Below the pieces are notes generated by a model, which saw only the letters and a program-made list of their open reading frames with translations, had not been told where the DNA came from and made no database searches. Below are positions 11,998-53,844 of a stretch of 64,000 nucleotides of DNA, piece after piece. The translations under genes and the position numbers were made by a program. The stretch lies in NCBI GenBank assembly GCA_035479295.1, contig DATIIV010000012.1:65010-129009 (forward strand), written 5' to 3'. This stretch comes from Candidatus Saccharimonadia bacterium (lineage in GTDB: Bacteria; Patescibacteriota; Saccharimonadia; UBA4664). The number at the start of each line of letters is the position of its first letter. Position 1 is the first letter of the stretch.

Positions 11998-13263
11998 TTG
12001 TCGGGCGGCCTCTTTGCGCCGGCTACGTCTGCCGTTACACTACCCACAGTGGGCAGCCTCTTTACTCTTTTTCATAGCCTAATTTTGTCGCTACATATAG
12101 CGGCTTTTCCGGTATCGCCGTTTGTTTTTTCGACCCCGCAGGTGCCCTCGACGGCCGAGAATCCCCAGCCGCTGCGGGTGGTGACGCGCGTGATCGAGCC
12201 GTTTGTGATCGATGAGGGCAACGGTAAATATAGCGGCTACAGCATGGAGCTGCTCGACCTCATCCACCAGGAGCTCAAAGAGCCGAGCCTGCCGGCGGGG
12301 CAAGATTATGCCCTGTCGCCTCAGCAAAAAGCCGTTATTAATCTGCCCTTTGCTATCGAATCCCAGCCGGCCGCTAACGCCGAGGCGCTTGTTAAAACCG
12401 TTCAGGACAACGGCGCCGATCTCGGCATCGCCAGCATCTCCATCACGCAGGATCGCGAGGCTCGGGTCGACTTTAGCCTGCCCATGTACAGCTCGGGTTT
12501 GCAGGTGATGCAAACCACCGACAAGGCGCCCGGCCCAAACATCATGACGGCGCTCGGACATATCTTGAGCCGCCCCAAAACGCCGGCGGTTCTGTGGCTA
12601 GGATTCATCGGCATGGCGACGCTAGCCACTCTTATTTACCTGTTTGAGCAGCGTCACAGCAAGAGCTTTCTGTTTGGTGAGCCGCCGCTGGTGGGCATTG
12701 GCAACGCTTTTTGGTGGGGGCTAACCGTGTTGGTGGGCCAAGAAGAAGCGCACCCGCGGTCGAGTGTGAGTCGGCTGGCGGCTACCTTAATTATGGCTAC
12801 CGGTGTAATTGTTGTAGCGCTCTTTACGGCCTCGGTGGCCTCGGACTTAACGTTGCAGCAGCTGGACGATCCCGAGCGCGGCATCGATAGTCTAAACGGC
12901 CATGTAGTGGTGACGCTCGACGGCACAACCTCCGAATCCTACCTGGACCAGAAGCGGGTTGAGCTCAAGATTAAAGCCATCAAAACAGTTGGCACCTTGG
13001 ATGACGCCTACGCTATGCTCAAGAACGGCCAGGCCGACTCGCTGGTGTACGACGCACCTGTGTTGCAGTATTATGCTAGCCACCAGGGCCGTGGCAAGTT
13101 TACGACGGTGGGGCGGCCGTTTCACTCGGAGTATTACGGCATTGTCCTGCCTCAGGGCAGCCCCTGGCGCGAGCCGATTAGTCGAGCATTGCTGACGTTG
13201 TCCGAGGACGGCACGCTCGACCACTTGGCGCAAACGTACTTGGGCGATGCTAGCAACAATTAG
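11998..13263 (+). CDS. GluR0-like ligand-gated ion channel (bilobed periplasmic binding domain split by an M1-P-M2 pore module)
   Basis: Architecture is S1 lobe, TM helix (AVLWLGFIGMATLATLIYLF), re-entrant pore-like segment (GNAFWWGLTVLVGQ), TM helix (LAATLIMATGVIVVALFTASVA), then S2 lobe (DSLVYDAPVLQYYAS). There is no TVGYG K+ filter. Start uncertain. Confidence 0.55.
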   Translation: MSGGLFAPATSAVTLPTVGSLFTLFHSLILSLHIAAFPVSPFVFSTPQVPSTAENPQPLRVVTRVIEPFVIDEGNGKYSGYSMELLDLIHQELKEPSLPAGQDYALSPQQKAVINLPFAIESQPAANAEALVKTVQDNGADLGIASISITQDREARVDFSLPMYSSGLQVMQTTDKAPGPNIMTALGHILSRPKTPAVLWLGFIGMATLATLIYLFEQRHSKSFLFGEPPLVGIGNAFWWGLTVLVGQEEAHPRSSVSRLAATLIMATGVIVVALFTASVASDLTLQQLDDPERGIDSLNGHVVVTLDGTTSESYLDQKRVELKIKAIKTVGTLDDAYAMLKNGQADSLVYDAPVLQYYASHQGRGKFTTVGRPFHSEYYGIVLPQGSPWREPISRALLTLSEDGTLDHLAQTYLGDASNN

Positions 13264-27259: not shown

Positions 27260-29263
27260 TTATCGGAGTGAGGTTGGCGGTTTGGGTCGGCGCCATAGCC
27301 AGTGGTGCAGGGTTAGGCTGATGCCGCCGAGCAGGCCCAGGCTGAGGCCAATCAGCGAGGCGTTGACGGCCGTCTTGTTGCCCTTAAGCGGCGCAAAGAG
27401 TAGGTTGCGAATGGTCTGGAGGGGCGACAGGTTGTTCTGTACGTCGACGCGCCGGCTGGCTATTTGGGTCTGGCCGCTGGGCGTGGTGGTGACGGCCGTG
27501 ACGGTGTGCTGGCCGTTGGTGAGGTAGGTAGTGTCGAGCTGATTGCCAGTGGTAACGGGCGTGCCGTCGACTTTAATGATGGTGTGGCCGCGGCTGCCCG
27601 GCGTGCCCAGGCTGATGGTGCCGCCCACCACGGGCTGGGCACCGGCCGGAATGGGTACCGGCGTGCTGGTGCCGGGCGGCGTAATGGTAATGGGGTTGCC
27701 GCTGCCCGGCGCCGGGCTGGGCGAGGGGCTGGGGTTGGGCGGTGCCTGGGTCTGTACGGTGAGGTTGGCCCGGGCCGAGGCGTTGCCGGCGGCGTCGTAG
27801 GCCTCCACCTGAAAGGTGTAGTTGGTGGAGGCCGCCAGATTCTGGGCGAGGTAGCTGGTGCCGGCCTGGTCGGCCACGCGGCTGCCGCCCTGGTACACGC
27901 GGTAGCCGCGCACACCCACATTGTCGCTGGCGGCGTTCCAGGCCAGGCTAATCTGGGCGTTGGTAATGAGCGTGGCGCGCAGGCTGCCCGGCACCGACGG
28001 CGCCTGGGTGTCGCCGGGATTGGGCGTCGCGGTGGGCGGAGTCGTGGGCGTGGGAGTGTGGGTGGGCACCGGAGTTGGCGTGGGGGTATGAGTGGGGACG
28101 GGCGTGGGCGCTGTGGTTGGGGGAGGCGTTGGTGCGGGAGTGGTCGCGGCCAGGCTGTGGGCATAGTTCCAAATCAGCTGCCCCAGCGCATCGATGTTCG
28201 TGGGGTTGCCCGAGCTATTAACGGCCACATTGTAGAATGGCCCGCCGCCGTTCACAAACTCAAATCCGCTCAGGCCGTTGCCGTGCCAGGGCAGAATGCC
28301 CACGCCCAACCCCGGTGCCACGCTAAAGGCCGCCTGGGTGCCGGCCTGCAGCAGCGGGTTGTCGCCGGAGCTATCGCCATCGATCCAGCCGGTCTCGCCA
28401 ATCATCAGCGGCAGGTTTTGGCCGTGCATGGCCTGAATAAAGCTGCTTAGCTGGCTGCTCTTATTGGCCCAATTGCCATACACATGCACCGAGAACGCTA
28501 CATTACCGTAACTATTTTTTAACCCCGGTCCATACTGCAAAAAGGCGCTCTGACTATGCCAATCGCCGCCGTAACTCTGCTCCTGGCCGCAGTTTGAGCC
28601 ATCGTACACAATCATATTTTGGGCGCCGGTGGCTCGAATAGCACTCGAGTAATCGTTCATCATGTTGGTCCAGGTGCTGTCGGCATTGCCACTGCCAGGC
28701 TCATTATATAAGTTGAACCAGACGTAAGGATTCGTCTTGTAACGATTAGCTTTGTCGATCCACCAGGTCTTAATGGCGGCGTAGTCGGTGCCATTAACGT
28801 AACCGCAATCGGCACGGGGGTGCATGTCTATCATCACCACCATATGGCGGTTGGTGTACTCGGTGACGATGCCGTCCAGGTCGTTATTAACGCCCGAGAT
28901 GCCGGGGGTGACGCCGGCGTTGTACTGCGACGGATTCTCGGGGCCGCTGTCGAGCTCGCTGTTGAGGCGGATGATGTTCCACTTCCAGGCGGCCTGGGCC
29001 GGCCCGCTCTCGCCCAGGGTGGGGTTACCCCACACAAAGTGCGGCCCGTCCAAGTTGGTCCCCACCGGCGTAAAGACGGCGCCATTGGGGTCGATAATTT
29101 GCCAGCCGCTGAGGTGAAAAGTGCCGGCCGCGAGGCTGTGGCGCACCACGTACAGGCCCGCGACGACGGTGAGCGCCACCACCGCCGCCATGGCCACTAA
29201 GCTCCAGCGGCTGGTTAGTCGAAGACGCCCGAGAGCGATTTTGGAGCGGCGCTTACGCCTCAT
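27260..29263 (-). CDS. Secreted GH5 glycoside hydrolase with PT linker, Fn3 domain and C-terminal TM/basic tail
   Basis: Start ATG at 29263 follows AGGGA; the upstream in-frame codons lack an RBS. GH5 motifs NLYNEPG (acid/base) and GETGW (nucleophile). PT-rich linker, Fn3 sequence, C-terminal LIGLSLGLLGGISLTLHHWLWRRPKPP. Confidence 0.75.
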   Translation of the reverse strand: MRRKRRSKIALGRLRLTSRWSLVAMAAVVALTVVAGLYVVRHSLAAGTFHLSGWQIIDPNGAVFTPVGTNLDGPHFVWGNPTLGESGPAQAAWKWNIIRLNSELDSGPENPSQYNAGVTPGISGVNNDLDGIVTEYTNRHMVVMIDMHPRADCGYVNGTDYAAIKTWWIDKANRYKTNPYVWFNLYNEPGSGNADSTWTNMMNDYSSAIRATGAQNMIVYDGSNCGQEQSYGGDWHSQSAFLQYGPGLKNSYGNVAFSVHVYGNWANKSSQLSSFIQAMHGQNLPLMIGETGWIDGDSSGDNPLLQAGTQAAFSVAPGLGVGILPWHGNGLSGFEFVNGGGPFYNVAVNSSGNPTNIDALGQLIWNYAHSLAATTPAPTPPPTTAPTPVPTHTPTPTPVPTHTPTPTTPPTATPNPGDTQAPSVPGSLRATLITNAQISLAWNAASDNVGVRGYRVYQGGSRVADQAGTSYLAQNLAASTNYTFQVEAYDAAGNASARANLTVQTQAPPNPSPSPSPAPGSGNPITITPPGTSTPVPIPAGAQPVVGGTISLGTPGSRGHTIIKVDGTPVTTGNQLDTTYLTNGQHTVTAVTTTPSGQTQIASRRVDVQNNLSPLQTIRNLLFAPLKGNKTAVNASLIGLSLGLLGGISLTLHHWLWRRPKPPTSLR

Positions 29264-29311
29264 TGTGGTCCCTATTAATGTGCTTATGATTATATACTGC
29301 CTGCCCAGCAG

Positions 29312-29340
29312 TTGACGAATGCGGTTAAATGGGGGATTAT
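29312..29340 (+). promoter_or_regulatory. Putative sigma-70-like promoter of the LuxR-repeat operon
   Basis: TTGACG, 17 nt spacer, GATTAT; located about 40 nt upstream of GTG at 29380. Confidence 0.4.
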
Positions 29341-29379
29341 GGGCGGTGCCTTGTACCGAATGTACGGGAGTAATTAGAC

Positions 29380-30366
29380 GTGACAGCTTACGCAGAAGTG
29401 GCCGATGGCCACTGGGTCCGTCCCTCATTTAGCGCCTATGAACTTGAGGTGGCGGAGCGAATTCTAGCCGGCTATTCTCACAAGGTGTTGGCGCAGTGGC
29501 GTGCCCAATGCGTGGGCGCGGAACGAACGGATACGTCGATCACTTCGGTGCTGACTCGCTTGGGCCGGTTGGTTGCACGAGGCGATTCGATTCGCCTGAC
29601 GGTCATCATGGCGGAGCTGAGCTTAATTAAGCTGCCGAATGTGCAGCCCTGGGAAACTGATGCCTTGATGGAATCGGGCCTCAGTTTTGCCTGGGAACAG
29701 ATCCTGGAGCTGGCCATGAATGGCTGCAGCGCTCAACAGATCGCGACGAGGCTAAACCTCAGCTTCTCGCAGGTTCGAGGGCGGATCAGAATGTTACGCT
29801 ACTCCGGCGCGTTTAGGCAGTCTAGACTAATCCGACAGGTGGCAGTTTGGCTGACAACGAGATCTTTCATTCCGGACCGGCTTTCGAAGCGGCCGGTGGT
29901 TCAGGGGCCTCTGCTCTGGCATTACCTGATGGGCTACGATGAAGTGGAGACTCAGAGGCGACTTAACTGCGTCCCGTGGGTGGTGCCAACTTGGACAGCT
30001 CAAATGTTGACGCGCCTGAGAGAGACCTCGCTACTCAGAAGTTGTTTGGACGGCGTGAATAGCGGTAGGCTGCGGCTACCCTATCCACTGCGAGGATCCG
30101 TGGAGGCGCTGACTAAGCAGCCGCTTAGCTCTCGGTGCGTGGAGGAGCTGCGCGATCACGTGATGCGCGCTCGGAATATGACCCTTCAGCAGCAGGCTGC
30201 ACTACGTCAGCCTCAGCCTGATTGGCACGACATCTGTCGTGAGGTGCGCGTCGATACGCCCTGGCAGGCCCTGATGGTTGGGGCGGGTTATGTGTCTAGG
30301 CTAGATCAGTGTGGTGCTTTGGCGCCTCCGAACGCCTACAAGGGAGACGCACAGAATGGCAGCTAG
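29380..30366 (+). CDS. Multi-HTH LuxR-like DNA-binding protein, paralog 1
   Basis: GGGAG RBS and GTG start. Two LuxR/GerE-like HTH segments (ELEVAERILAGYSHKVLAQ; EQILELAMNGCSAQQIATRLNLSFSQVRGRIRMLR). No receiver or ligand-binding domain. Confidence 0.5.
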   Translation: MTAYAEVADGHWVRPSFSAYELEVAERILAGYSHKVLAQWRAQCVGAERTDTSITSVLTRLGRLVARGDSIRLTVIMAELSLIKLPNVQPWETDALMESGLSFAWEQILELAMNGCSAQQIATRLNLSFSQVRGRIRMLRYSGAFRQSRLIRQVAVWLTTRSFIPDRLSKRPVVQGPLLWHYLMGYDEVETQRRLNCVPWVVPTWTAQMLTRLRETSLLRSCLDGVNSGRLRLPYPLRGSVEALTKQPLSSRCVEELRDHVMRARNMTLQQQAALRQPQPDWHDICREVRVDTPWQALMVGAGYVSRLDQCGALAPPNAYKGDAQNGS

Positions 30367-31315: not shown

Positions 31316-32113
31316 CTACACCTCCACCGTCTTTATCGTCCACATATCCCAGGCCAGGCCGCGATTGCCCAGGTAGGCGAACGGCAGGTAAAAATACCCC
31401 TTATCGCCCCAACCGGTGCCCCAAGAGTTGCGGCCAATGAACTGCTGCTTGGTCTGGTCGTAGCCCACAATCAGTACGGCGTGGCCGCCCAGCAGTTTCT
31501 CGCTCTTGTGGGGCAGAGGAATGACGCCGGTCGTATTAGCGGCTGGGCTCTCAAAGCTCTCATACACTGAGATACCGGTAATGAACGGGTAGCCGCTAGC
31601 TAGGCAGGCCAGCATATCGCCGAAGGGATTGAGGTGATGGGTGACGATGCGCTGATAGGTAAGGGCTTGATTTTTTTCGGCTTCATCAAAGCACTTTTTG
31701 GTAGGCTTAACGGTAAACTTGGTAATGTCGTAAGGCCAATCCGTCTCGGGTGCGCTCCCAATCTTAACGAGAACTTTAACACCATCGCGCAGCCGGGCGC
31801 CGGCATCGCTGTTAACCGTGCCTTCCACATCGCGCTCGTTCCAGTAAATAAAAAGACGGCTCGGTGTCATAAAGGCCTTGCCCTCTTGGTGGCGGTCAAA
31901 GTCGAAAGCGGCGGCCAGCGCGTTAGCGGTGCAGCTGCCCAAGTGGCCTTGGTTGTAAATGGGCGGACATTTGTGGCGCAGATCGGCCTGGGGCGGCAGG
32001 GGAGCGGCTACTTGGGCTAGGGCGGCCGTGCCGTCAAAGATGTGGTCCCGTTGGTCGGGTAGGTCGGGTAGCCAGCCGAGGCCGTGGTTTTGAGGAGTAA
32101 CGTTGTGTGCCAT
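31316..32113 (-). CDS. Papain-like (C1A) cysteine peptidase, no signal peptide, copy 1
   Basis: Catalytic Cys motif QGHLGSCTANAL, His motif GGHAVLIVGYD, Asn motif NSWG. Confidence 0.8.
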   Translation of the reverse strand: MAHNVTPQNHGLGWLPDLPDQRDHIFDGTAALAQVAAPLPPQADLRHKCPPIYNQGHLGSCTANALAAAFDFDRHQEGKAFMTPSRLFIYWNERDVEGTVNSDAGARLRDGVKVLVKIGSAPETDWPYDITKFTVKPTKKCFDEAEKNQALTYQRIVTHHLNPFGDMLACLASGYPFITGISVYESFESPAANTTGVIPLPHKSEKLLGGHAVLIVGYDQTKQQFIGRNSWGTGWGDKGYFYLPFAYLGNRGLAWDMWTIKTVEV

Positions 32114-34758: not shown

Positions 34759-36987
34759 TTAGCTCTGGGCGGCGGCGCCAGACTCAGCCGTTTTGGCTCT
34801 AGCCTTAGCTTCGGCCGCTGCTCCGTTGGGTTGCGGCAGCACAATTACCGAAGTGGTCTTAAGCGGCAGCGCGAAGCCAAAGATGCTACCCTTGCCCTCC
34901 TCGGACTTAAAAATAATCGAGCCACCTTGGTCCTCGATCACGCGCTTAGCTAGGTACAAGCCCAAGCCGGTGCCGTCCGGCCGCTCGGCCTTGGCGTTCT
35001 CGGCCCGGTAAAACTTGGAGAACAGGTGACGCTTCTCGTTCTCTGGCACGCCAATGCCGCTATCGATTACCAGCACCTCGGCAGCGCCCTCAGACTCGCG
35101 CACCTCCACCGTGACGCTGCCCTTGGGCGTGTAGTAAATGGCATTATCGATAAAATTCATAATCACCTGGCGCGTCTTGCTCTCGTCGATCGACAGCATG
35201 GGCAGCGGCTTGTCGGGCTGCTTAAAGATGAGTTCCAGCTTCTTGCGCTCGGCGCTCGGCCGCAGCTGCTGCACCTCCTGCTGGGCCAGCTCGCTCAAGT
35301 CCACCGGCTGGCGCTGAATCATAAACCGCCCCGAGCTCAGTCGCGACACATTCAGCAGATCGCTCGACATCGACACCATCCGCTCGGCCGCCTCTAGCGC
35401 GTAGTTAACATACTCGCGCTGCTTCACCGTCATGTTGGCCTGGTCGTCATCGAGCGCCATCGACAAGTAGCCGGTAATGGCGGTCAGCGGCGTGCCCAGC
35501 TGGTGCGACGCCATCGAGATGAAGTCGTCTTTGGTCTTATCCAGCACCTGCAAGTTGCGGTTGGCGGTGCGCAGTCGGTGCGTCGCATTGCGAATCCGCT
35601 CCTGCAGCGTGGCGTTAAAGTGGGCGATCTCTTCGTAGGATTTAGCGTTCTCAATCGCTACGGCTAGTTCTTTGCGGACGATATCGAGCAGCGTCAGATC
35701 CTGGCCCGAATACATTTCGCCACTCATCTTGTAGCCCAGGAAGAGATAGCCCACTAGCTCTTTCTCGGTGCTTAACCTAATAATGACGCCTAGGCCATGC
35801 TCCTCTAGGAATGATTTGGTTGCACCGGGCTCAAGCTCATCTGCTACCAAGGTGCTAGCGTTAATGTGCTCTAAATCCTTGTAGGTAAGTTTATAACGGG
35901 GCTCGTCACCAATGAATGTACGACTATAAATACTGTTGTTCTCGACAATGATGATTTGACCAGTAGCGATGCGCAATGACCAACAGAGCGTGCGCAATGA
36001 CTTCTTGAGGAGCGGTTCAAGTAAGAGCTCTGAAGTCAGAATCTCGCTTAAATCATCGAGCACGATCTGACTGTCGTAGCGATCTCGAAAGAATATGCTG
36101 TCGGTGACCTTCTCGAACAGTCGGCGTAAAGGCTGAAAGGTAATGGCTAGAAATAGCGCCAGGGCAACAAAGACACCAGTTTGGGCTAGCGGGATATTAT
36201 TCTGAAAGAGAATGTTGCTTGCCGCTAGGATGGTAATTCCATACAGGCCAATAAAAGTTGTAAGAAGCAAAAGATAGGCAACTGATCGGGCGACGGCTAG
36301 CCTGATACTAAAGAGTCGATGCTTAACGATAGCGTACGAGACCGACCCCACCAAGAAAACGGTTAGCAATGGGCCGATGCGCGATATGTCCCAGTTGCCG
36401 ACGATAGCCGGAATGACAATGTTTGTGAGCACAGCCAAGATAATAAAACCCGCTATTCCCAGCATAATAAGACGAGTTTGAGCGCGAAGCCGCAAGTCGA
36501 TTCCAGTGTTCCGGTACAGCTTCCAGAGGTAGTAGCAAGATAGTCCAAACATCACCAAGATGAAAATGGGGTAGAGAGTATAAAGGCTGCCGAGAGCAAC
36601 GTTGGTTCCTCCGTCGGGCCGCTTTGAGACGGGACCAACCACGAAATCGCTTAAAGAGAAGATGGTGCCAGCAATAATAATGACGGCACTAACAAGCTGT
36701 CTCCGCTTGCTGGCGCTTTGTTTGCCGCCAAAGTAAAACGCAAACAACGTTATGGTGGCTAACACGAGAAAACCGGCGCCAAAGTCAAGGCGAGCAAAGA
36801 ACTGATCAAGGCCAAGCGTGGGAGCTCGGTCGGTAAGATAATTGAAGATCGTCCAGGCGGTGATTGACAGGGAGATGCCAAAAAACGCCCGACTCTCGGC
36901 TCGCTGAGGGTTACGCATAAACACGAGCGAGCCGAGAGCCAAATTGCTTACTGAGGCGAGTATGAGGATGGCGAGGTCAAATATCAT
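34759..36987 (-). CDS. PrsK-like sensor histidine kinase (about 300-aa multi-TM N-terminal domain, GAF-like region, HisKA, HATPase_c), cassette A
   Basis: H-box ISMASHQLGTPLT, N-box IDNAIYYT, G-boxes DSGIGV and GTGLGL. Paralog of 53845-56013. Its start overlaps the upstream stop as ATGA. Confidence 0.8.
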   Translation of the reverse strand: MIFDLAILILASVSNLALGSLVFMRNPQRAESRAFFGISLSITAWTIFNYLTDRAPTLGLDQFFARLDFGAGFLVLATITLFAFYFGGKQSASKRRQLVSAVIIIAGTIFSLSDFVVGPVSKRPDGGTNVALGSLYTLYPIFILVMFGLSCYYLWKLYRNTGIDLRLRAQTRLIMLGIAGFIILAVLTNIVIPAIVGNWDISRIGPLLTVFLVGSVSYAIVKHRLFSIRLAVARSVAYLLLLTTFIGLYGITILAASNILFQNNIPLAQTGVFVALALFLAITFQPLRRLFEKVTDSIFFRDRYDSQIVLDDLSEILTSELLLEPLLKKSLRTLCWSLRIATGQIIIVENNSIYSRTFIGDEPRYKLTYKDLEHINASTLVADELEPGATKSFLEEHGLGVIIRLSTEKELVGYLFLGYKMSGEMYSGQDLTLLDIVRKELAVAIENAKSYEEIAHFNATLQERIRNATHRLRTANRNLQVLDKTKDDFISMASHQLGTPLTAITGYLSMALDDDQANMTVKQREYVNYALEAAERMVSMSSDLLNVSRLSSGRFMIQRQPVDLSELAQQEVQQLRPSAERKKLELIFKQPDKPLPMLSIDESKTRQVIMNFIDNAIYYTPKGSVTVEVRESEGAAEVLVIDSGIGVPENEKRHLFSKFYRAENAKAERPDGTGLGLYLAKRVIEDQGGSIIFKSEEGKGSIFGFALPLKTTSVIVLPQPNGAAAEAKARAKTAESGAAAQS

Positions 36988-37796
36988 GCGGGCGTAGGTC
37001 CTGTAAATGCTGGAAACTTGAAGACTTCTTGAAGACCCTCGCCCCGGAACAGCCAGCCAAATCGCTTTGGGTCATTAACGCAAAGGCGCGCCATCCAGTC
37101 CTCGATATCCACCCAAACGGGCAGGCTCAGACTTGAACCAAGGTAAGGCTTCCAACCTATCCCCTCGTAGTAGCTAAAGGGTTCACCAAGTCTGCGCTTG
37201 AAGCTGTTGTGAGCGGACTCATCAACTATTGTAACCCAATAGCGAGCAGCTTGCTCTAGTGTATACTTACATGCCATGTGGTAGATCGCCTTGGCGATCC
37301 GGCCCGAGTATGCGTGGCGATGGTAGGCCGGGACTACCCCCATTGTCACCATGTCTAGCGTAGTTTTGGGGCCAAAGTCGACAGCAGCGGCTTGTAGCGC
37401 CTGAGTTAGCGGTAGGTTCCAGTACCGACCAGGCTCGCTTGACTCGATGTCGGTGAGGCTTTTAAAGCCGAGGGGCGACCGTCTGATCACTCGCAACATT
37501 CCGGCTGGTAGACCGTTTGCATGGTCGATAAGGATAAAGAATGTGCTGTAGGGATCATATGGCCCATACTCTCTCTCTAGATCCTCTGGCGTGTCCCCGT
37601 AGAAAGCGAATACGTCCGCCTCCGCCAACCGCGCGACTGGCAATGCCCAGTGCGGTGTGCCGGTTTGGGGCTCGATGCGATAGACGCCAAATGGCTGCGA
37701 TGGCGCGGCATTACCCTGGTCCATGAGGCGGCGAATCAGGTCCTTAGAGCGAATCGTCTCTTCCCACTGTTCTCGCACTAGCCCCGTAGCGACCAC
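36984..37796 (-). CDS. GNAT-fold acyltransferase, LuxI / N-acyl-amino-acid-synthase-like (divergent), cassette A
   Basis: Shares motifs with 53094-53807 (E.LE...YD.YS.F; RYW.T; LG.P) and has the GVVPAYHRH GNAT-like core. Lower GC than the background. Confidence 0.4.
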   Translation of the reverse strand: MVATGLVREQWEETIRSKDLIRRLMDQGNAAPSQPFGVYRIEPQTGTPHWALPVARLAEADVFAFYGDTPEDLEREYGPYDPYSTFFILIDHANGLPAGMLRVIRRSPLGFKSLTDIESSEPGRYWNLPLTQALQAAAVDFGPKTTLDMVTMGVVPAYHRHAYSGRIAKAIYHMACKYTLEQAARYWVTIVDESAHNSFKRRLGEPFSYYEGIGWKPYLGSSLSLPVWVDIEDWMARLCVNDPKRFGWLFRGEGLQEVFKFPAFTGPTPA

Positions 37797-38137
37797 TAGG
37801 TCTCCTTAAACTCGATGTGTGAAGCCTTGAAATAACGCTGAGTAAACTCCACAGCGTTATTCACATTGAAAGCCTTGCAGGTATATATGTCAACGCTAAA
37901 GAAGAGGCGCGGTTGCTCCCAGGCGTATAGGTGAGCCCCCGATGTTTCCCAGTGAATCCAGCCAGCCCAGCCGTAGAGGTCTGAGCGGTGTGTCACCGGT
38001 TTGATGAGTGCTGTCATGCCTGTTACGACAGAGAGCTGTTCAAGGTAGTCTTTAATTTGGGCATCATCAATAGGTTGGGCGCAATAGCCCTCAATAATAA
38101 GCCGCTGCCGGTATATCTCCGGCGCTAGATCCCTCAC
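37796..38137 (-). CDS. S-adenosylmethionine decarboxylase-fold (SpeH/class 1b-like) small protein with atypical processing motif
   Basis: Aligns to SpeH: RQRLIIEGYCAQ vs GRHLVAEFYECD, and IHWETSGAHLYAWEQPRLFFSVDIYTCK vs [26 protein letters not shown]. The canonical ESH cleavage site is replaced by ETSGAH. Confidence 0.6.
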   Translation of the reverse strand: MRDLAPEIYRQRLIIEGYCAQPIDDAQIKDYLEQLSVVTGMTALIKPVTHRSDLYGWAGWIHWETSGAHLYAWEQPRLFFSVDIYTCKAFNVNNAVEFTQRYFKASHIEFKET

Positions 38138-38215
38138 CCCATAGCTCCTTGTTCAGGCCCATCATACTCTTCTTAGGACCGCTAAGTCTACGTAAAAAGA
38201 TGAAATTAAAGCGTT

Positions 38216-38734
38216 TTACGCCGCCCCAGCTGCTCCCGGAATCTCGTCCTTGGTATAGCCCGCCAAGATGCCGCGGACGATCTCCTCGACCTGCTTGGGC
38301 TTGTGCTCGCTCTTGATGATGTAGCGGACGGCGCCGAGCTCGAGGGCGGTCTGGACGTCGCTGTTGCCGGCCAGGTTGGTGAGCACCACCACCGGAAGAT
38401 TGGCCACGGCCGGATCGGCCTTGAGCTGCTTGAGCACCTCCATGCCGTTAAGCTTGGGCATCATGATGTCGAGCAGAATGAGCGTGGGGTTAACCGAGCG
38501 TGCTTTGTCGAGGCCCTCTTGGCCGTCGGTGGCCAGTTCAACCTCGTAATTATTCGAGGCAAAGATCGTCTGATACATCCGCGAGAGTAAGGCGTCATCT
38601 TCGATGATTAGAATCTTAGGCACACTGAAAACCTCATTTACGCCCATCATACACGAGGCAAGCGAGAAGCGGAAGCCCTTAAGCATAAGCTTTATCAAAG
38701 GACAAATTTCGCGGTTGAGCCGATGGAGCGGCAA
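38216..38734 (-). CDS. Stand-alone response regulator receiver (start probably internal, about 38647-38650)
   Basis: KILIIEDD ... LILLDIMMP ... VVVLTNL ... K. No output domain. Confidence 0.75.
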   Translation of the reverse strand: MPLHRLNREICPLIKLMLKGFRFSLASCMMGVNEVFSVPKILIIEDDALLSRMYQTIFASNNYEVELATDGQEGLDKARSVNPTLILLDIMMPKLNGMEVLKQLKADPAVANLPVVVLTNLAGNSDVQTALELGAVRYIIKSEHKPKQVEEIVRGILAGYTKDEIPGAAGAA

Positions 38735-39180: not shown

Positions 39181-39603
39181 ATGAAGAATAAGAACGTTAT
39201 TATAACGCTCGTGGTAGCGATTATTATCGTGGTAGCGGTAGCAATTTATCTGGCTATGGCCGGAGGCAAAACCACCGGTAGCCCAATGGCTTCGGCCTCG
39301 CCGACGCCGCAAGCGGTGCCGAGTAGTCAGGCCGTGTCCACTATTAAGTACAATGTCTCGGGCGGCTTTAGTCCTAGCTCGGTCACTATTAAGTCGGGCC
39401 AGGCTATCACCTTTACGAATGATTCGGCCGACGAGATTCAGGTCGACTCCGATCCGCACCCCACGCACACCGATAATCCCGAGCTGAATGTGGGCACCAT
39501 TGCGGCTGGGCAGAGCCAGACCATTAAGCTAACCACCGCCGGCAGCTGGGGCTACCACAACCACCTCAACCCGAGCGACAAGGGGCGCGTGATCGTACAG
39601 TAG
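39181..39603 (+). CDS. Membrane-anchored cupredoxin-like domain protein (no Cys copper ligand)
   Basis: N-terminal TM helix, S/P-rich linker, then a beta-rich domain ending GSWGYHNHLNPSDKGRVIV that resembles the plastocyanin-type C-terminus but lacks Cys. Confidence 0.35.
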   Translation: MKNKNVIITLVVAIIIVVAVAIYLAMAGGKTTGSPMASASPTPQAVPSSQAVSTIKYNVSGGFSPSSVTIKSGQAITFTNDSADEIQVDSDPHPTHTDNPELNVGTIAAGQSQTIKLTTAGSWGYHNHLNPSDKGRVIVQ

Positions 39604-39658: not shown

Positions 39659-40444
39659 CTATGCCTCCACGAGCTTGATGGTCCACAGATCGGAGGTCAG
39701 CTCGCGATCGGTGAGGTAGGCGAGCGGCAGGTAAAAGTAGCCGGCGTCGCCCCAGCGCTTGCCCCACGAGTTGCGGCAGATGAAGTAGCCAGCGGCCATG
39801 TCGTAGCCCACCACCAGGATGGCGTGGCCACCCAGGAGCTCCTCGTTGGGCTTCGGCACGGGAATGACGCCGGTGCGGTTGGCCTCGTCGCTCTCAAAGC
39901 TGGCGTAGACCGCGATGCCGGCCACGAACGGGCGGCCGGCCGCCAAGCAGCTGCGCATGTTGGTGTCGTCGCTCGTTACCTTGATGCGAGCGTACGACAG
40001 CACCTGGTTGGAGAGCGCGTCAGCGTAGCACTGGGCGGACGGCTTGACGGTGAAGCGGCTGATGTCGTACAGCCACTCGCTCTCGGGCGGCACGCCCAGC
40101 TTGGCCAGAACCTTCATGCCGTCGCGAAGGTAGGCGCCGGCGTCGGTGTCGACGGTGCCCTCGCGTGCGCGCTCATTGTAGTAAATGAACAGCCGGCTCG
40201 GGCCGATGGGCTCCTGACCCTGCCGGCGACGCTCCATGTCGTAGGCCGCCGCCAGCGCGTTGGCGGTGCAGCTGCCCAGCTGGCCCTGGTCGTACACGTC
40301 CGGGCAGTCCGGGCGCAGGTCGATGCTATTGGGCAGCTGCGAGGGGCGGATGTCTAGGCCGGCGCGGTCGAACTTGTGGTCGCGGGGGTCGCGCGGATCG
40401 GGGATATTCCCGAGGCCGTGGCCGCGGGGCGTTACGAGCGCCAT
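39659..40444 (-). CDS. Papain-like (C1A) cysteine peptidase, no signal peptide, copy 2
   Basis: QGQLGSCTANAL, GGHAILVVGYD, NSWG. Strong paralog of 31316-32113. Confidence 0.8.
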   Translation of the reverse strand: MALVTPRGHGLGNIPDPRDPRDHKFDRAGLDIRPSQLPNSIDLRPDCPDVYDQGQLGSCTANALAAAYDMERRRQGQEPIGPSRLFIYYNERAREGTVDTDAGAYLRDGMKVLAKLGVPPESEWLYDISRFTVKPSAQCYADALSNQVLSYARIKVTSDDTNMRSCLAAGRPFVAGIAVYASFESDEANRTGVIPVPKPNEELLGGHAILVVGYDMAAGYFICRNSWGKRWGDAGYFYLPLAYLTDRELTSDLWTIKLVEA

Positions 40445-50678: not shown

Positions 50679-51461
50679 ATGACGAAATTGTTGGCTGGCA
50701 AGGATGTGGCCGGATTCATTCAGGAGCGCCACGCCCAGACGGTGCGAGGCCTTCTGGTTGCGCCCAAATTGGCGATTGTGCGCCAGGGCGCCACGCCGGC
50801 TACCGATGCCTATCTGCGCGTTAAGAAGCAGTACGGCGCCGATATCGGTGTGATGGTTGATACTTACACCGAGGCGCCGGCCGATCTGATGGCCCGCATT
50901 GCCGCGCTCAACGCCGACCCCAGCGTCACCGGTATTATCGTGCAGCTGCCGTTTGCCGATCAGCCGGACCTGGCTGAGCAAGCGCTGGCGGCGGTGGCGC
51001 CGGCCAAAGATGTGGACGGCCTGAGCCCCCACTCACCATTTGAGGCCGCCACTCCCAAGGCTATTCTGTGGCTGCTGGCGGCCTACAACGTTGACCTGAG
51101 TGGCCGCCGCATCGCCGTGGTGGGGCAGGGCCGGCTGGTCGGCGCGCCACTGGCCGACCGCCTCGACGCCAGTGGCCATGACGTGGCGCGCCTCGACGAG
51201 CACACACCCAACCTGGCCGCCGCCCTGCACGACGCCGGCGCTATTATCACCGCCACCGGCCAGCCCGGCCTCATCACCTCGGCCATGGTAGCCGACGGCG
51301 CCATCGTGGTCGACGCCGCCTCGCCCCGCAGCGACCTGGCCCGCGACCTCTTCGACCGCGCCGACCTCATCATCACGCCCAATCCCGGCGGCGTCGGCCC
51401 CATGACCGTGGCGTCATTATTCGACAATTTACTGATTGCGGCGCAGACTCGTCATCCCTAA
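50679..51461 (+). CDS. folD: Bifunctional methylenetetrahydrofolate dehydrogenase/cyclohydrolase
   Basis: Family pattern: ...LAIVRQGATPATDAYLRVKKQ ... GIIVQLP ... VVGQGRLVGAPLA ... a short (260 aa) form. Confidence 0.8.
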   Translation: MTKLLAGKDVAGFIQERHAQTVRGLLVAPKLAIVRQGATPATDAYLRVKKQYGADIGVMVDTYTEAPADLMARIAALNADPSVTGIIVQLPFADQPDLAEQALAAVAPAKDVDGLSPHSPFEAATPKAILWLLAAYNVDLSGRRIAVVGQGRLVGAPLADRLDASGHDVARLDEHTPNLAAALHDAGAIITATGQPGLITSAMVADGAIVVDAASPRSDLARDLFDRADLIITPNPGGVGPMTVASLFDNLLIAAQTRHP

Positions 51462-51912: not shown

Positions 51913-52299
51913 CTAAACCTTCTTGGCTAGTAGCGCCTTTACCCGCTCCGTCACCTCTTTGGGCGTCATCTCGGCCTTCACAATGTAGTCGTCGGCGGCC
52001 ATTTTGTAGACGCGCGTGGCCGTCTCGGTGTCGCCCATGTTGGTTAGCACGACCACTTTAGCGTCGCGCCCATTGGCCTGAGAACGCAGCTTTTGCAGCA
52101 TCTCCAAGCCATTCATATTGGGCATCATCAAATCGAGCAAAATAATATCAGGTGCAAACGACTCAATTAATTCCAGTCCACCGGCGCCATCGCCGGCCGT
52201 GGCCACCTCGTAGCCCTCATTCTCAAACTTCACCCGATACATCTGCACGATCGCCATGTCGTCCTCGATGATCGCCACTTTGACTTTTTGGTCACTCAT
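51913..52299 (-). CDS. Stand-alone response regulator receiver
   Basis: VAIIEDD ... IILLDLMMP ... VVVLTNM ... K. 128 aa. Confidence 0.85.
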   Translation of the reverse strand: MSDQKVKVAIIEDDMAIVQMYRVKFENEGYEVATAGDGAGGLELIESFAPDIILLDLMMPNMNGLEMLQKLRSQANGRDAKVVVLTNMGDTETATRVYKMAADDYIVKAEMTPKEVTERVKALLAKKV

Positions 52300-52362
52300 A
52301 TCTGTAGTTTATAACGCGATTTAACCATAAGCAATTATTTCTCAGCTAATTTGTAGCTGCTG

Positions 52363-53010
52363 CTACTCGATAGGCAGACGATAGATGCGGTTAAGAATCT
52401 GGAGAGCAGTAAGCTTCTCTGCTGCCTCCAGCGGCTTGCCCACCGTAATGGCATAAGAAGGCCATAGCCATCGGCCGCGGCACCACTCGATGTGCACTGG
52501 AATTATCTTTACTTGAGGAGTCTTGGCTAGAACTTCAATGCCGCTTCGGGGCCGAATCTTATGCGGTGTGCGCTTGCCCTCAGGAAAGATCATGATAGAT
52601 TGGTGGTGTTTCAGAAACAGCTGGGCTGCAGTGAGGCCATAAATGTAAGAGGCATTGGCGCTAGCCGGGAAAGCTCCAAACGCAAAGAGGAAGTGACGTA
52701 GGAACTTGTCGAAGAGGGCGTTATGGGCAAAAAAGCGGAGAGGTGCTAGGCCGGCAAGGATGCCTGGTGGAAGTGCGACGCAAATTATAAACGGGTCAAA
52801 CATGCTCTGGTGATTTGCTGCAACTATATAGCAATGATCAGGACTAATATCACCAGGCTGGAGGTTGACTCTAGTCCGATGCGGTAGCAAGTGGGTAATG
52901 AGGCGAATTGGCCAGTAAAGGACGCGCTGACTGAGTAAGATCACGCGAAGACGGCCAGGCGATAAAAGCGAGTCAAGGGACGCAAAAGATTTTACTTGAG
53001 TAGCCGACAT
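52363..53010 (-). CDS. PlsC-family (lysophospholipid/1-acylglycerol-3-phosphate) acyltransferase
   Basis: HxxxxD motif (ANHQSMFD) and FPEGKRT motif. Lower GC. Confidence 0.7.
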   Translation of the reverse strand: MSATQVKSFASLDSLLSPGRLRVILLSQRVLYWPIRLITHLLPHRTRVNLQPGDISPDHCYIVAANHQSMFDPFIICVALPPGILAGLAPLRFFAHNALFDKFLRHFLFAFGAFPASANASYIYGLTAAQLFLKHHQSIMIFPEGKRTPHKIRPRSGIEVLAKTPQVKIIPVHIEWCRGRWLWPSYAITVGKPLEAAEKLTALQILNRIYRLPIE

Positions 53011-53093
53011 CGGTAAAATTGATGATATGTAATTGCGTAATTATATAATAATATTAAAGGCAATGCAAGATGCAAAATGAGGAGTAATAGATA

Positions 53094-53807
53094 GTGACAA
53101 ACAGGCAGGAGGGGGCGGCTGAGTCGGGGAAAGGGGGACTTGGCTCGAGGCATTTGCATTTTGAGGAGCATGGACTGGTCTTTCGCGAGTTAACAGCAGA
53201 GGCCGATTTTAGGGCCGCTTATCGGCTGCGTTATAAAATCTGTGTAGAGCAGCTGCATTGGGTGCAGGGGGTTCCCGAAGAGCAGCTTGAGTACGATGAT
53301 TATGATAAGTACTCGTACCACTTTGGCTGTTTTAGGGAGAGTAAGCTTATAGGGTATATGCGTATGACGCCAGAAGATAATTCCGTGGGCACCATGAGCC
53401 GCGACCACTTTGGCCATCTCTGGCAAATTGACCCTCAGTACCCTACCCACGAAACGGCTGACCTATCCCGACTCTTGGTGGATCGGCCCTATCTGCATAA
53501 ACCCTTGCTGCTGCGGCGAATTCTGATTGGTTTATACCGACTGGCCTACGGAAGGGCAGAATTGAGTCGGCCGCGCATTCGGTATTGGTATTTTATTACC
53601 ACGGGACGCTTGCTTAAGGCTTTAAGATGGCAGTTAGGCTTACCCGTCAAAGTGTTTGGCCACGATCAGACCTCAGATGGCAAAACCACCTATGCAGTCG
53701 GCCTCGATTTACAGCGGGGTCGCCGGAGACTCGCTATCCTCGCACCTTGGCGTCTTATCTACTTTGCCAGGGCTAAGCGGCTTCAACGCGATAATGAGCG
53801 TCCATAG
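53094..53807 (+). CDS. LuxI / N-acyl-amino-acid-synthase-like GNAT acyltransferase (PEP-CTERM-associated-acyltransferase-like), cassette B
   Basis: GAGGAG RBS, 9-nt spacer, GTG. Matches the LuxI-family pattern: RLRYKICVEQLHW, EYDDYD, GYMRM, ADLSRLLV. About 50% GC. Confidence 0.6.
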   Translation: MTNRQEGAAESGKGGLGSRHLHFEEHGLVFRELTAEADFRAAYRLRYKICVEQLHWVQGVPEEQLEYDDYDKYSYHFGCFRESKLIGYMRMTPEDNSVGTMSRDHFGHLWQIDPQYPTHETADLSRLLVDRPYLHKPLLLRRILIGLYRLAYGRAELSRPRIRYWYFITTGRLLKALRWQLGLPVKVFGHDQTSDGKTTYAVGLDLQRGRRRLAILAPWRLIYFARAKRLQRDNERP

Positions 53808-53844
53808 TATCAACTTAAGCAAAAGAGCTATAGAATAAAGATTA

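Follow-up and report, generated by a model that had tools for sequence, protein, structure and literature searches.

An AdoMetDC-fold protein coupled to a LuxI/FeeM-like acyltransferase beside membrane sensors: a conserved module that may make an acylated amine in Saccharibacteria and Actinomycetota

The DNA described here is a stretch of 64,000 nucleotides from a Candidatus Saccharimonadia bacterium, referred to as the window. On its reverse strand lie, in the direction of transcription, the genes for a response regulator (the receiver), a small protein with the fold of S-adenosylmethionine decarboxylases (AdoMetDC; gene A), a GNAT (gene B) and a histidine kinase (HK1). Their positions are given in Table 1.

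Table 1. Features of the A-B locus, in window coordinates.
Feature	Description	Position	Strand	Basis
HK1	histidine kinase, 742 aa: HisKA_7TM many-pass membrane N-terminus, central region, HisKA, HATPase_c	34759..36987	-	Pfam
Gene B	GNAT, placed by structure in the LuxI/FeeM (N-acyl synthase) clade, 270 aa, with N- and C-terminal extensions	36984..37796	-	
Gene A	AdoMetDC-fold protein, 113 aa	37796..38137	-	Pfam PF02675; AF2 and Foldseek; hhalign register to SpeD
Receiver-A spacer	78 bp	38138..38215	-	hairpin and sigma-70-like site, consensus scan
Receiver	stand-alone receiver-domain response regulator upstream of A, without output domain	38216..38734	-	Pfam Response_reg, E 3e-24

Gene A begins with GTG, 7 nt downstream of the Shine-Dalgarno sequence AAGGAG. 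Its stop codon overlaps the GTG start of B by one base (TAGTG), and the ATG of HK1 overlaps the stop codon of B (ATGA). The stop-start overlap bears out what the first-pass annotation had claimed, i.e., that A is translationally coupled to a LuxI/FeeM-like GNAT and not to a spermidine synthase. The true start of the receiver gene is likely the ATG at 38650, giving a protein of about 144 aa. At the receiver-A spacer, a consensus scan placed a terminator-like hairpin (38228-38207) and a sigma-70-like site (38190-38161), such sites being no more numerous than in shuffled sequence; this is weak evidence, and only a hint, that A, B and HK1 have a promoter of their own. With the exception of two tRNAs, no Rfam family reached its gathering score in the window, and none was found near the operon in eight related loci.

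The AdoMetDC fold of A had been proposed at first reading and was found both by profile and by structure prediction, the comparisons that had been named beforehand as able to refute it. Residues 16-112 align with positions 5-103 of the 107 positions of the Pfam profile PF02675 (AdoMet_dc; E 2e-11), with a score of 44.6 bits that is above the gathering score of 25. The AF2 model (pLDDT 96.6) has as its top Foldseek matches the T. maritima AdoMetDC structures 1tmi, 1vr7 and 1tlu (TM 0.78-0.80, 111-112 aligned columns, 20-22% identity, E 7.6e-9), and it also matches 2iii (TM 0.75). When PDB chains were searched by sequence with A and with the A-family profile, no AdoMetDC was reached, so it is the Pfam model together with the predicted fold that relates A to AdoMetDC. 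A phmmer search with A returned only 304 relatives from 1.84 billion representative proteins, and canonical SpeD was not reached; the NCBIfam equivalog TIGR03330 (SAM_DCase_Bsu) gave 20.4 bits, below its cut-off of 75.65.

Class 1b SpeD/SpeH, represented by T. maritima TM0655 (1tlu, 1tmi, 1vr7, 3iwb), has the same fold as A and is in the same length class (TM 0.79). Corresponding residues in A and SpeD are Glu16 and Glu11, His-Arg 50-51 and 47-48, Tyr-Gly 55-56 and 52-53, Trp73 and Trp70, Asp83 and Asp79, and Cys87, which is in the motif DIYTCK, and the active-site Cys83. In contrast to SpeD, A has the acidic residue of TWPE shifted (WEQP), an invariant N-terminal segment DLAPxIxRQRLxIEG, and no spermidine synthase as a partner.

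The ETSGAH motif noticed in A at first reading is present at residues 64-69. It had been described as carrying a one-residue insertion at the cleavage site, which proved to be an artefact of alignment. The hhalign profile alignment lays WETSGAHLYAW of A on an 11-residue segment of T. maritima SpeD without a gap; the spacings from Tyr-Gly to Ser (10 residues) and from Ser to Trp (7 residues) are equal in the two proteins; and the single extra residue of A lies after Trp73, in the WEQPR loop. Thus, Ser66 corresponds to Ser63 of SpeD and Thr65 to Glu62. The other part of that description, a non-canonical residue ahead of the processing serine, holds: Thr65 is in the place of Glu, so that a Glu directly preceding the serine (the ES motif) is absent from A and the Glu is found one residue further upstream. 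In 195 distinct sequences compared, position 65 is T in 185, S in 7, A in 2 and N in 1. More distant relatives of A have WEESG, WAESG, WTESG or IDSG at the cleavage site, and some of them thus do have ES. The residue before the serine varies (T/S/A/E/D/V) among the A family and its distant relatives, and the serine is constant. Judged from the sequence, the likely site of proenzyme cleavage is between Thr65 and Ser66, inside WETSGAH, and the predicted fragments are 7.58 and 5.71 kDa. The residues used for processing in SpeD, His68 and Ser55 (T. maritima numbering), are replaced in the profile alignment by Tyr71 and Ala58 of A, respectively. Neither is kept in place, and the histidine of A stands at position +3 relative to the serine, compared with +5 in SpeD. 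This histidine, the invariant His69, precedes Tyr71 by two residues on one β-strand, and from the alternation of side chains it should point to the side that His68 occupies.

It had also been suggested that A is a non-processing, SAM-binding partner of the acyl synthase. As such a non-catalytic subunit, A would bind SAM or another ligand and would partner or regulate B, comparable to the trypanosome prozyme or the N-terminal domain of spermine synthase. Dead AdoMetDC-fold domains do exist and are among the structural matches of A (spermine synthase 3c6k, T. brucei prozyme 5tvm), LuxI-type enzymes use SAM, and the non-Glu residue ahead of the serine and the low score with the NCBIfam SpeD model point the same way. 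However, the known dead domains lack the Ser and the Cys, whereas Ser66 and Cys87 of A do not vary in any of the 195 distinct sequences, nor do Glu16, His62, His69 and, position 65 apart, the motif around the serine, which makes a dead, non-processing A unlikely. Ser66 is, moreover, in register with the pyruvoyl serine. Degenerate paralogues without the Ser and Cys can be found within the A family (P0255, the L026 paralogue and the N-terminal domains of two-domain proteins); they look quite different, and it is exactly at these two residues that they depart from A. In the two-domain proteins, ETSG and TCK are kept in the C-terminal domain only, the pattern expected for one catalytic and one scaffold domain. 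A non-catalytic A is thus considered quite unlikely.

By its fold, the protein encoded by B belongs to the branch of the GNAT superfamily that comprises the AHL synthases and FeeM. In the Foldseek comparison FeeM has the best TM-score, and the nearest structures are catalytic AHL and N-acyl synthases. The identity of B to the LuxI synthases LasI, TofI, RpaI, BjaI and MesI and to FeeM is 9-14%, the alignment of LasI to B is only marginal (E 1.1), and B has no match to PF00765 or to any other Pfam family above threshold. Against PF13444, the B of the window scores 12.6 bits (cut-off 22.4); weak matches to this profile were found in 36 of 83 members of the B family (best E 1e-4), two members matched FeeM (PF21926), and hhalign aligned the B-family profile with the true PF13444 protein of the window with a probability of 75% (E 2.5e-5). 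At the LuxI core positions, E59, Y77, R102, D116, T151, Y218 and S221 are invariant in the B family and D148 is nearly so, and the segment WDxxTxAV aligns with WELSRFAI of LasI. In a manual alignment with the SAM-binding residues Arg23, Phe27 and Trp33 of LasI, the nearly invariant R56 and F63 of B follow in similar order and the position of the Trp is FGN. Unlike the LuxI and FeeM enzymes, B has extra N-terminal helices and a C-terminal extension, and is coupled to the decarboxylase-fold gene A; unlike LuxI systems, A-B has no LuxR-type receptor nearby. We know of no LuxI or FeeM enzyme that is coupled to a decarboxylase, and literature searches found no such coupling.

The window also holds a paralogous module, in which a PF13444 GNAT occurs with a 7TM kinase and is paired with a PlsC-type acyltransferase. 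A metagenome scan for close relatives of this second GNAT (GNAT2; 53094-53807) found none. The combination of a PF13444 N-acyltransferase with a PlsC-type O-acyltransferase is that of ornithine-lipid synthesis (OlsB/OlsA). B is distantly related to PF13444 proteins, but A-B differs from OlsB/OlsA in having the decarboxylase-fold A in place of the O-acyltransferase, and the score with the OlsB equivalog model was far from its cut-off.

A-B is a conserved module. In about 70 of 80 genome loci B is the next gene after A, the junction mostly falling between -4 and +4 nt, and A and B are fused in a single polypeptide in P0228, P0232, P0233 (on 9 contigs) and P0243; in about five of the 80 loci neither a B nor a sensor could be recognised beside A. 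Together with a membrane sensor, A-B is present in hundreds of Saccharibacteria and Actinomycetota, including the cultured genera Blastococcus, Modestobacter, Geodermatophilus, Trujillonella and Cryobacterium. Between the two phyla A is far more conserved than B (64.6% and 26.5% identity, respectively), a pattern of divergence consistent with a head-group chemistry that stays fixed while the acyl specificity diversifies. Further afield, A-like domains are combined with other partners that modify amines or use SAM: a tandem GNAT in Acaryochloris, a different partner of 292 aa (also found fused), and SET domains.

A pyruvoyl proenzyme (which A is predicted to be) paired with a GNAT-fold protein has a precedent in PanD, the pyruvoyl-dependent aspartate decarboxylase, and its GNAT-fold activator PanZ, or PanM (PMC3496974). 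By analogy, B could serve the A proenzyme in maturation or regulation, in which case A alone would make the product, a free amine. The translational coupling and occasional fusion of A and B are compatible with such a role, as are the different GNAT types that accompany A-like proteins; and because the processing residues of SpeD, His68 and Ser55, are not in place, A could need help with processing. On the other hand, the fold of PanD differs from that of A, and PanZ is a small, non-catalytic sensor of acetyl-CoA, whereas B, at 270 aa, is twice its size, belongs to the clade of the catalytic AHL and N-acyl synthases rather than to that of small CoA-sensing GNATs, and keeps the residues at the LuxI core positions. 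A protein obliged to bind the near-invariant A should not diverge to 26% identity, some genomes carry A without B, and several unrelated GNATs and SET domains are more easily explained by modification of an amine. A role of B as activator of A is therefore regarded as unlikely.

A sensor lies beside A-B in 64 of the 80 loci, i.e., in nearly every locus with enough flanking sequence. In 20 of these it is a 7TM histidine kinase, which together with the receiver is the partner in Patescibacteria, and in 44 it is a membrane GGDEF-EAL protein, the partner in Actinomycetota. In every Patescibacteria locus whose flanking sequence is long enough, the kinase gene follows B directly, and the receiver gene adjoins A in 27 of the 80 loci, which are nearly all of those from Patescibacteria. 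Orthologues of both sensor types have 8-10 hydrophobic segments; one sensor domain shared by the two was considered and rejected, as hhalign did not detect homology between the membrane domains of the kinase and the GGDEF-EAL protein. The arrangement with the sensor is kept in the loci that carry fusions, and a distant two-domain branch keeps the order receiver, partner, A, kinase. Clustering of neighbouring ORFs across the 80 loci found A, B, the sensor, the receiver and a syntenic folD to be recurrent, and no recurrent ACP, fatty-acid, polyamine or transporter gene.

This layout, a putative synthase gene beside a gene for a membrane signalling protein, is like that of quorum-sensing modules and is conserved across taxa. 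Autoinducer synthases are paired with sensor kinases in LuxM/LuxN, CqsA/CqsS and RpfF/RpfC, and the membrane GGDEF-EAL protein MbaA senses polyamines with NspS. These systems resemble A-B in that a synthase gene adjoins that of a many-pass membrane kinase, or feeds c-di-GMP turnover; they differ in that their enzyme families are unrelated to A and B, and for A-B the link comes from the gene neighbourhood. That neighbourhood fits a sensor that detects the product and a sensor that regulates the operon equally well. Two other roles were considered and rejected: anti-phage defence (no PADLOC match for A, B or GNAT2, and no homologue of A in 50,697 phage records) and a toxin-antitoxin pair (A is about 65% identical across phyla, and A-B is in a conserved operon with signalling genes).

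Public records label A as S-adenosylmethionine decarboxylase / spermidine biosynthetic process. If this were correct, A would be an ordinary decarboxylase of the polyamine pathway, either SpeD or an arginine or ornithine decarboxylase of the SpeDA or SpeDC type, and its neighbours would be coincidental. SpeDA (arginine decarboxylase) and SpeDC (ornithine decarboxylase) are neofunctionalised AdoMetDC homologues (PMC10407285). Like A, these widespread enzymes have the AdoMetDC fold and are found without speE, including in the candidate phyla radiation and Actinomycetota; they were spread by horizontal transfer and provide a precedent for a change of substrate (PMC10407285). SpeDA and SpeDC were, however, reported in polyamine clusters (speY, hss, speE), whereas the companions of the A clade are a LuxI/FeeM-like GNAT and a protein of membrane signalling, and that report makes no mention of Saccharibacteria, Blastococcus, Geodermatophilaceae or an acetyltransferase partner. 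No speE, speY, hss, speB or other polyamine gene was present in the window ORFs scanned or recurrent in the 80 loci, and no Spermine_synth domain was found among the neighbours or the approximately 45 window ORFs scanned. A canonical speE next to A, together with normal ES processing, had been named beforehand as a finding that would speak against a repurposed A; no speE is in the window ORFs scanned, and without speE nearby a polyamine role for A is unlikely. The small number of phmmer relatives, with canonical SpeD not among them, argues in the same direction. Nor can the neighbourhood of B and sensor be coincidence, as it is held across two phyla, permuted gene orders and fusions. A polyamine function of A is thus very unlikely and the public label is probably misleading for the A clade, and the suggestion of the first-pass annotation that A is a further repurposed AdoMetDC homologue is supported.

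Instead, the evidence suggests that two enzymes make a signal or lipid of the acylated-amine kind by a route not yet described. The reading put forward here, with somewhat less than even confidence, is that A and B form a two-enzyme unit which makes an N-acylated amine, the product being functionally tied to the adjacent sensor. A would be a self-processing pyruvoyl-dependent decarboxylase of the AdoMetDC fold. Self-cleavage between Thr65 and Ser66 would convert Ser66 to the pyruvoyl group, and Cys87 would act as proton donor, like Cys83 in SpeD. The substrate of A would be an alpha-amino acid, candidates being S-adenosylmethionine or a basic amino acid. B, as a LuxI/FeeM-type N-acyltransferase, would then move an acyl group onto the amine produced by A; alternatively, B may first acylate a side-chain amine, and A would decarboxylate the acylated compound. 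The lipophilic product would be functionally tied to the adjacent many-pass membrane sensor, either in the manner of the autoinducer synthase and sensor kinase pairs named above or as an aminolipid that the sensor monitors. Several findings speak against this reading: the processing residues of SpeD are not in place in A, the TIGR03330 score is low and sequence searches do not reach solved AdoMetDCs, B lacks a Pfam match above threshold, a few loci have A with neither B nor sensor, and the membrane domains of the two sensor types show no homology. Saccharibacteria are, moreover, generally thought to lack fatty-acid synthesis, and no ACP or fatty-acid gene recurs in the neighbourhood. A bolder form of this proposal, which at present must be called doubtful, is that A-B makes lipophilic signals of a new class (N-acyl amines made by decarboxylation and LuxI-like acylation). 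Dedicated many-pass sensors in the membrane would read these signals, Saccharibacteria using 7TM histidine kinases and Actinomycetota GGDEF-EAL c-di-GMP enzymes. On this bolder view, if A acts on SAM, the signal would be decarboxylated SAM, or its aminopropyl moiety, in N-acylated form.

To our knowledge, AdoMetDC-fold enzymes have so far been known only from polyamine synthesis, as SAM decarboxylases and, recently, as arginine or ornithine decarboxylases. The searchable literature was found to contain no description of the A clade, and nothing on AdoMetDC with a GNAT, with an N-acyl amino acid synthase or with Saccharibacteria signalling. In the A clade the AdoMetDC fold would have a role outside polyamine metabolism, in partnership with a LuxI/FeeM-type acyltransferase, and no description of this combination was found. 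A circuit for small-molecule signalling or for sensing of the envelope is suggested by the fixed link with membrane histidine kinases and c-di-GMP enzymes; the hosts, ultra-small Saccharibacteria and soil and rock Actinomycetota, are organisms in which cell-cell signalling is little known. The module can be tested because it is carried by cultured genera, e.g. Blastococcus and Modestobacter. Saccharibacteria live as epibionts on Actinomycetota. Given this lifestyle and the approximately 65% identity of A between the phyla, under the bolder proposal a shared head-group chemistry could perhaps allow epibiont and host to produce, or overhear, each other's signal.

Gene A encodes a protein that resembles S-adenosylmethionine decarboxylase (AdoMetDC), and a protein identical to it has been recorded from a Candidatus Saccharimonadia metagenome-assembled genome under that name. 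Pfam family PF02675 covers nearly its full length (E 2e-11, 44.6 bits, cut-off 25); against the NCBIfam equivalog for SpeD, the class 1b AdoMetDC, it scores 20.4 bits, far under the cut-off of 75.65 bits. That A is an ordinary polyamine enzyme is very unlikely. None of the solved AdoMetDC sequences was reached by sequence search with A or with the A-family profile. The AlphaFold2 model of A is confident (pLDDT 96.6), and its top structural matches are the Thermotoga maritima AdoMetDC (1tmi, 1vr7 and 1tlu; TM 0.78-0.80, 111-112 aligned columns, 20-22% identity), with the Aquifex enzyme 2iii also among the best. These matches confirm the AdoMetDC fold proposed in the first-pass annotation.

At 90% identity the relatives of A form over 2,500 clusters, most of them about 70% identical to A; in a scan that took one genome per species, A turned up in 452 species. 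The hosts are chiefly Saccharibacteria and other Patescibacteria, together with Actinomycetota (Blastococcus, Modestobacter, Geodermatophilus, Trujillonella, Acidimicrobiia and Thermoleophilia). When 1.84 billion representative proteins were searched exhaustively with phmmer, no more than 304 relatives came back and canonical SpeD was not among them; A forms a discrete clade. The main splits in its tree follow phylum and context, with two sequences cross-placed.

Features of the window
Feature	Position	Strand	Remarks
SBP_bac_3 solute-binding + ligand-gated ion channel (Lig_chan) ORF	11998-13263	+	
GH5 cellulase with fn3 domain	27260-29428		
Papain-family (Peptidase_C1) cysteine protease	31316-32113	-	flanks region
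B, 270-aa ORF	36984-37796	-	GTG start overlaps stop codon of A
A, 113-aa ORF	37796-38137	-	GTG start, AAGGAG 7 nt upstream
Cupredoxin-like protein	39181-39603		
Papain-family (Peptidase_C1) cysteine protease	39659-40444	-	flanks region
folD	50679-51461		
Paralogous module (the five genes below)	51913-56455	mixed	
Receiver	51913-52299	-	
PlsC-type acyltransferase, PF01553	52363-53010	-	
PF13444 GNAT	53094-53807	+	sub-threshold Autoind_synth (AHL-synthase)/OlsB/TraI similarity
HisKA_7TM kinase	53845-56013	+	44% identical to HK1 (the kinase 3′ of B), full length
Second receiver	56000-56455	+	

The T. maritima SpeD sequence used for comparison is identical to PDB 1tlu; in 3iwb the processed chains end at Glu62 and resume after Ser63. 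In the A-family profile alignment, WETSGAHLYAW of A aligned gaplessly to an 11-residue segment of SpeD. The hhalign probability was low because the template was a single sequence, but the register is fixed independently of it, because the spacings are the same in both proteins: the serine stands 10 residues after the conserved Tyr-Gly, and the conserved Trp 7 residues after the serine. Ser66 of A corresponds to the pyruvoyl precursor Ser63, Thr65 to Glu62, Cys87 to Cys83, Glu16 to Glu11, Trp73 to Trp70, Tyr71 to His68 and Ala58 to Ser55. The sole extra residue of A lies after Trp73, so that the one-residue insertion earlier described at the ES site was an alignment artefact; the motif is non-canonical only in the change from Glu to Thr before the serine.

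Among 195 distinct A-family sequences, Ser66, Cys87, His69, His62, Glu16, Trp60/63/73 and Tyr71 are invariant, and position 65 holds Thr in 185 of them, Ser in 7, Ala in 2 and Asn in 1. Remoter relatives have WEESG, WAESG, WTESG, WTTSG, WVTSG or IDSG. Across these sequences the serine is fixed and the residue before it free to vary, a pattern which serine-to-pyruvoyl chemistry permits. Other pyruvoyl enzymes have Gly-Ser, Ser-Ser or Asn-Ser at this site. Copies without both Ser and Cys do occur (P0255 of the representative set, a paralogue at the Actinomycetota locus L026, and the N-terminal halves of two-domain proteins); these relatives indicate how dead copies of the family look, and A does not appear to be one. 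In the L026 paralogue (1499-2503), AAEGGA replaces ETSGAH and the TC motif is absent; it sits about 3.5 kb upstream of an intact A-B pair and may represent a dead copy of the prozyme kind. Neither His68 nor Ser55, the processing residues of SpeD, is kept in its place in A, which counts against a self-processing enzyme; the alternative that A is a non-catalytic, SAM-binding protein is improbable in our judgement.

A Pfam scan of B gave nothing above threshold; within its family there are weak matches to PF13444 (Acetyltransf_5) in 36 of 83 members and to FeeM in 2 of 83. The structure model of B is confident (pLDDT 92.5) and has its best Foldseek TM-score with FeeM, the B-family profile matches a genuine PF13444 member encoded at another place in the window (probability 75%, E 2.5e-5), and a marginal LasI match sets WDxxTxAV opposite WELSRFAI. 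The initial description of B as a LuxI-like GNAT thus holds for fold and superfamily branch, but not for membership of PF00765. Cryobacterium is represented among the homologues of B.

B lies directly 3′ of A in about 70 of the best 80 loci, the junction mostly lying between -4 and +4 nt; a very divergent B takes this position in 3 more, and A is alone in about 5. In the window, the gene after B codes for a 742-aa histidine kinase, and its ATG shares bases with the stop codon of B (ATGA). In one Saccharibacteria genome (L047, 5001-6265), A carries WESSGAH and has no B after it; the place is taken by a convergent gene for a GNAT of the LPG_synthase_C (DUF2156) type, with receiver and kinase still nearby. 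A is under far stronger constraint than B: for the same locus pairs, the median cross-phylum identities are 64.6% (A) and 26.5% (B). Near-invariance of A beside rapid divergence of B is in keeping with a head group that stays constant and an acyl chain that varies. A GNAT-type maturation role has precedent in PanZ (PMC3496974), and B might be a similar maturation factor, although we regard this as unlikely.

Single-chain A-then-B proteins are present in the representative set (P0228, P0232, P0233 and P0243), and the B-family HMM confirms their second halves (E down to 3e-66). P0233 was seen on nine contigs from several samples and is thus not a sequencing artefact; a PAS-GGDEF-EAL protein lies downstream of it. 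On one contig (L092, 1255-3066), an AMP-binding acyl-activating enzyme directly upstream could supply the acyl donor. Other architectures depart further. P0318 and P0372 join an A-clade domain with a canonical-looking WAESG site to a C-terminal SET (SAM-dependent methyltransferase) domain, an architecture of which no description was found. In the two-domain proteins P0256, P0263 and P0267, only the C-terminal domain keeps ETSG...TCK and the N-terminal domain is degenerate, recalling eukaryotic class 2 AdoMetDC. The N-terminal part of the longer fusions P0257 and P0304 has a homologue in a 292-aa protein whose own gene lies just upstream of a two-domain gene (L093, 1183-5453). Relatives 34-35% identical to A occur on large plasmids of cultured cyanobacteria: the one on Acaryochloris marina pREC2 (L095, 5908-7357; 34%) follows a tandem-GNAT gene at a distance of 40 nt and bears a spermidine-biosynthesis annotation, and the one on a plasmid of Nostoc sp. 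NIES-3756 (L096) is alone and annotated as a hypothetical protein. The deep theme that recurs is the pairing of an AdoMetDC-like domain with a partner that modifies amines (or uses SAM), in most cases a GNAT.

Patescibacteria have a receiver gene, then A, B and a HisKA_7TM histidine kinase gene, in that order. In Actinomycetota a convergent GGDEF-EAL gene follows A-B; in Geodermatophilaceae a gene of this type precedes A-B on the same strand. Among the best 80 loci the kinase is found at 20 and the GGDEF-EAL protein at 44, nearly all those with enough flanking sequence. Both proteins start with about 300 residues holding 8-10 hydrophobic segments, between which no homology is detectable. The distant two-domain branch retains the order receiver, partner (the 292-aa gene), A′A (the two-domain gene), 7TM/GAF kinase; no other gene family recurs around A-B, syntenic folD excepted. 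In the window folD adjoins the paralogous module, and in other Saccharibacteria receiver-A-B-kinase occupies that position. Members of one kinase family are found twice in this genome beside GNATs of the acyl-synthase type, with a decarboxylase in the first case and an O-acyltransferase in the second; the PlsC and PF13444 pair resembles OlsA/OlsB, which makes ornithine lipids. The genes for the proteases, cupredoxin-like protein and cellulase look unusual as accessory genes in a small Saccharimonadia genome, and the ORF at 11998-13263 looks like a prokaryotic glutamate-receptor-type channel.

The observed folds, retained residues, coupling, fusions and neighbourhood are most economically, if tentatively and at somewhat under even odds, read as follows, all of the chemistry being inferred: A would be an active, self-processing pyruvoyl decarboxylase yielding an amine, B would N-acylate that amine, and the lipophilic product, a signal or an envelope lipid, would be linked in function to the membrane sensor alongside. 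Against this reading, an acyl donor is not obvious in hosts thought to lack fatty-acid synthesis, and the neighbourhood cannot tell a neighbour that senses the product from one that regulates the operon. The remaining probability belongs to something else. A 2023 survey of repurposed AdoMetDC homologues (PMC10407285) mentions neither Saccharibacteria, Blastococcus, Geodermatophilaceae nor an acetyltransferase partner, and targeted full-text literature searches for the AdoMetDC-like and GNAT combination returned nothing. The fold was already known; the clade, the partnership and the context appear to be new. There is a modest chance that A-B is the synthase of a new class of signal common to Saccharibacteria and Actinomycetota.
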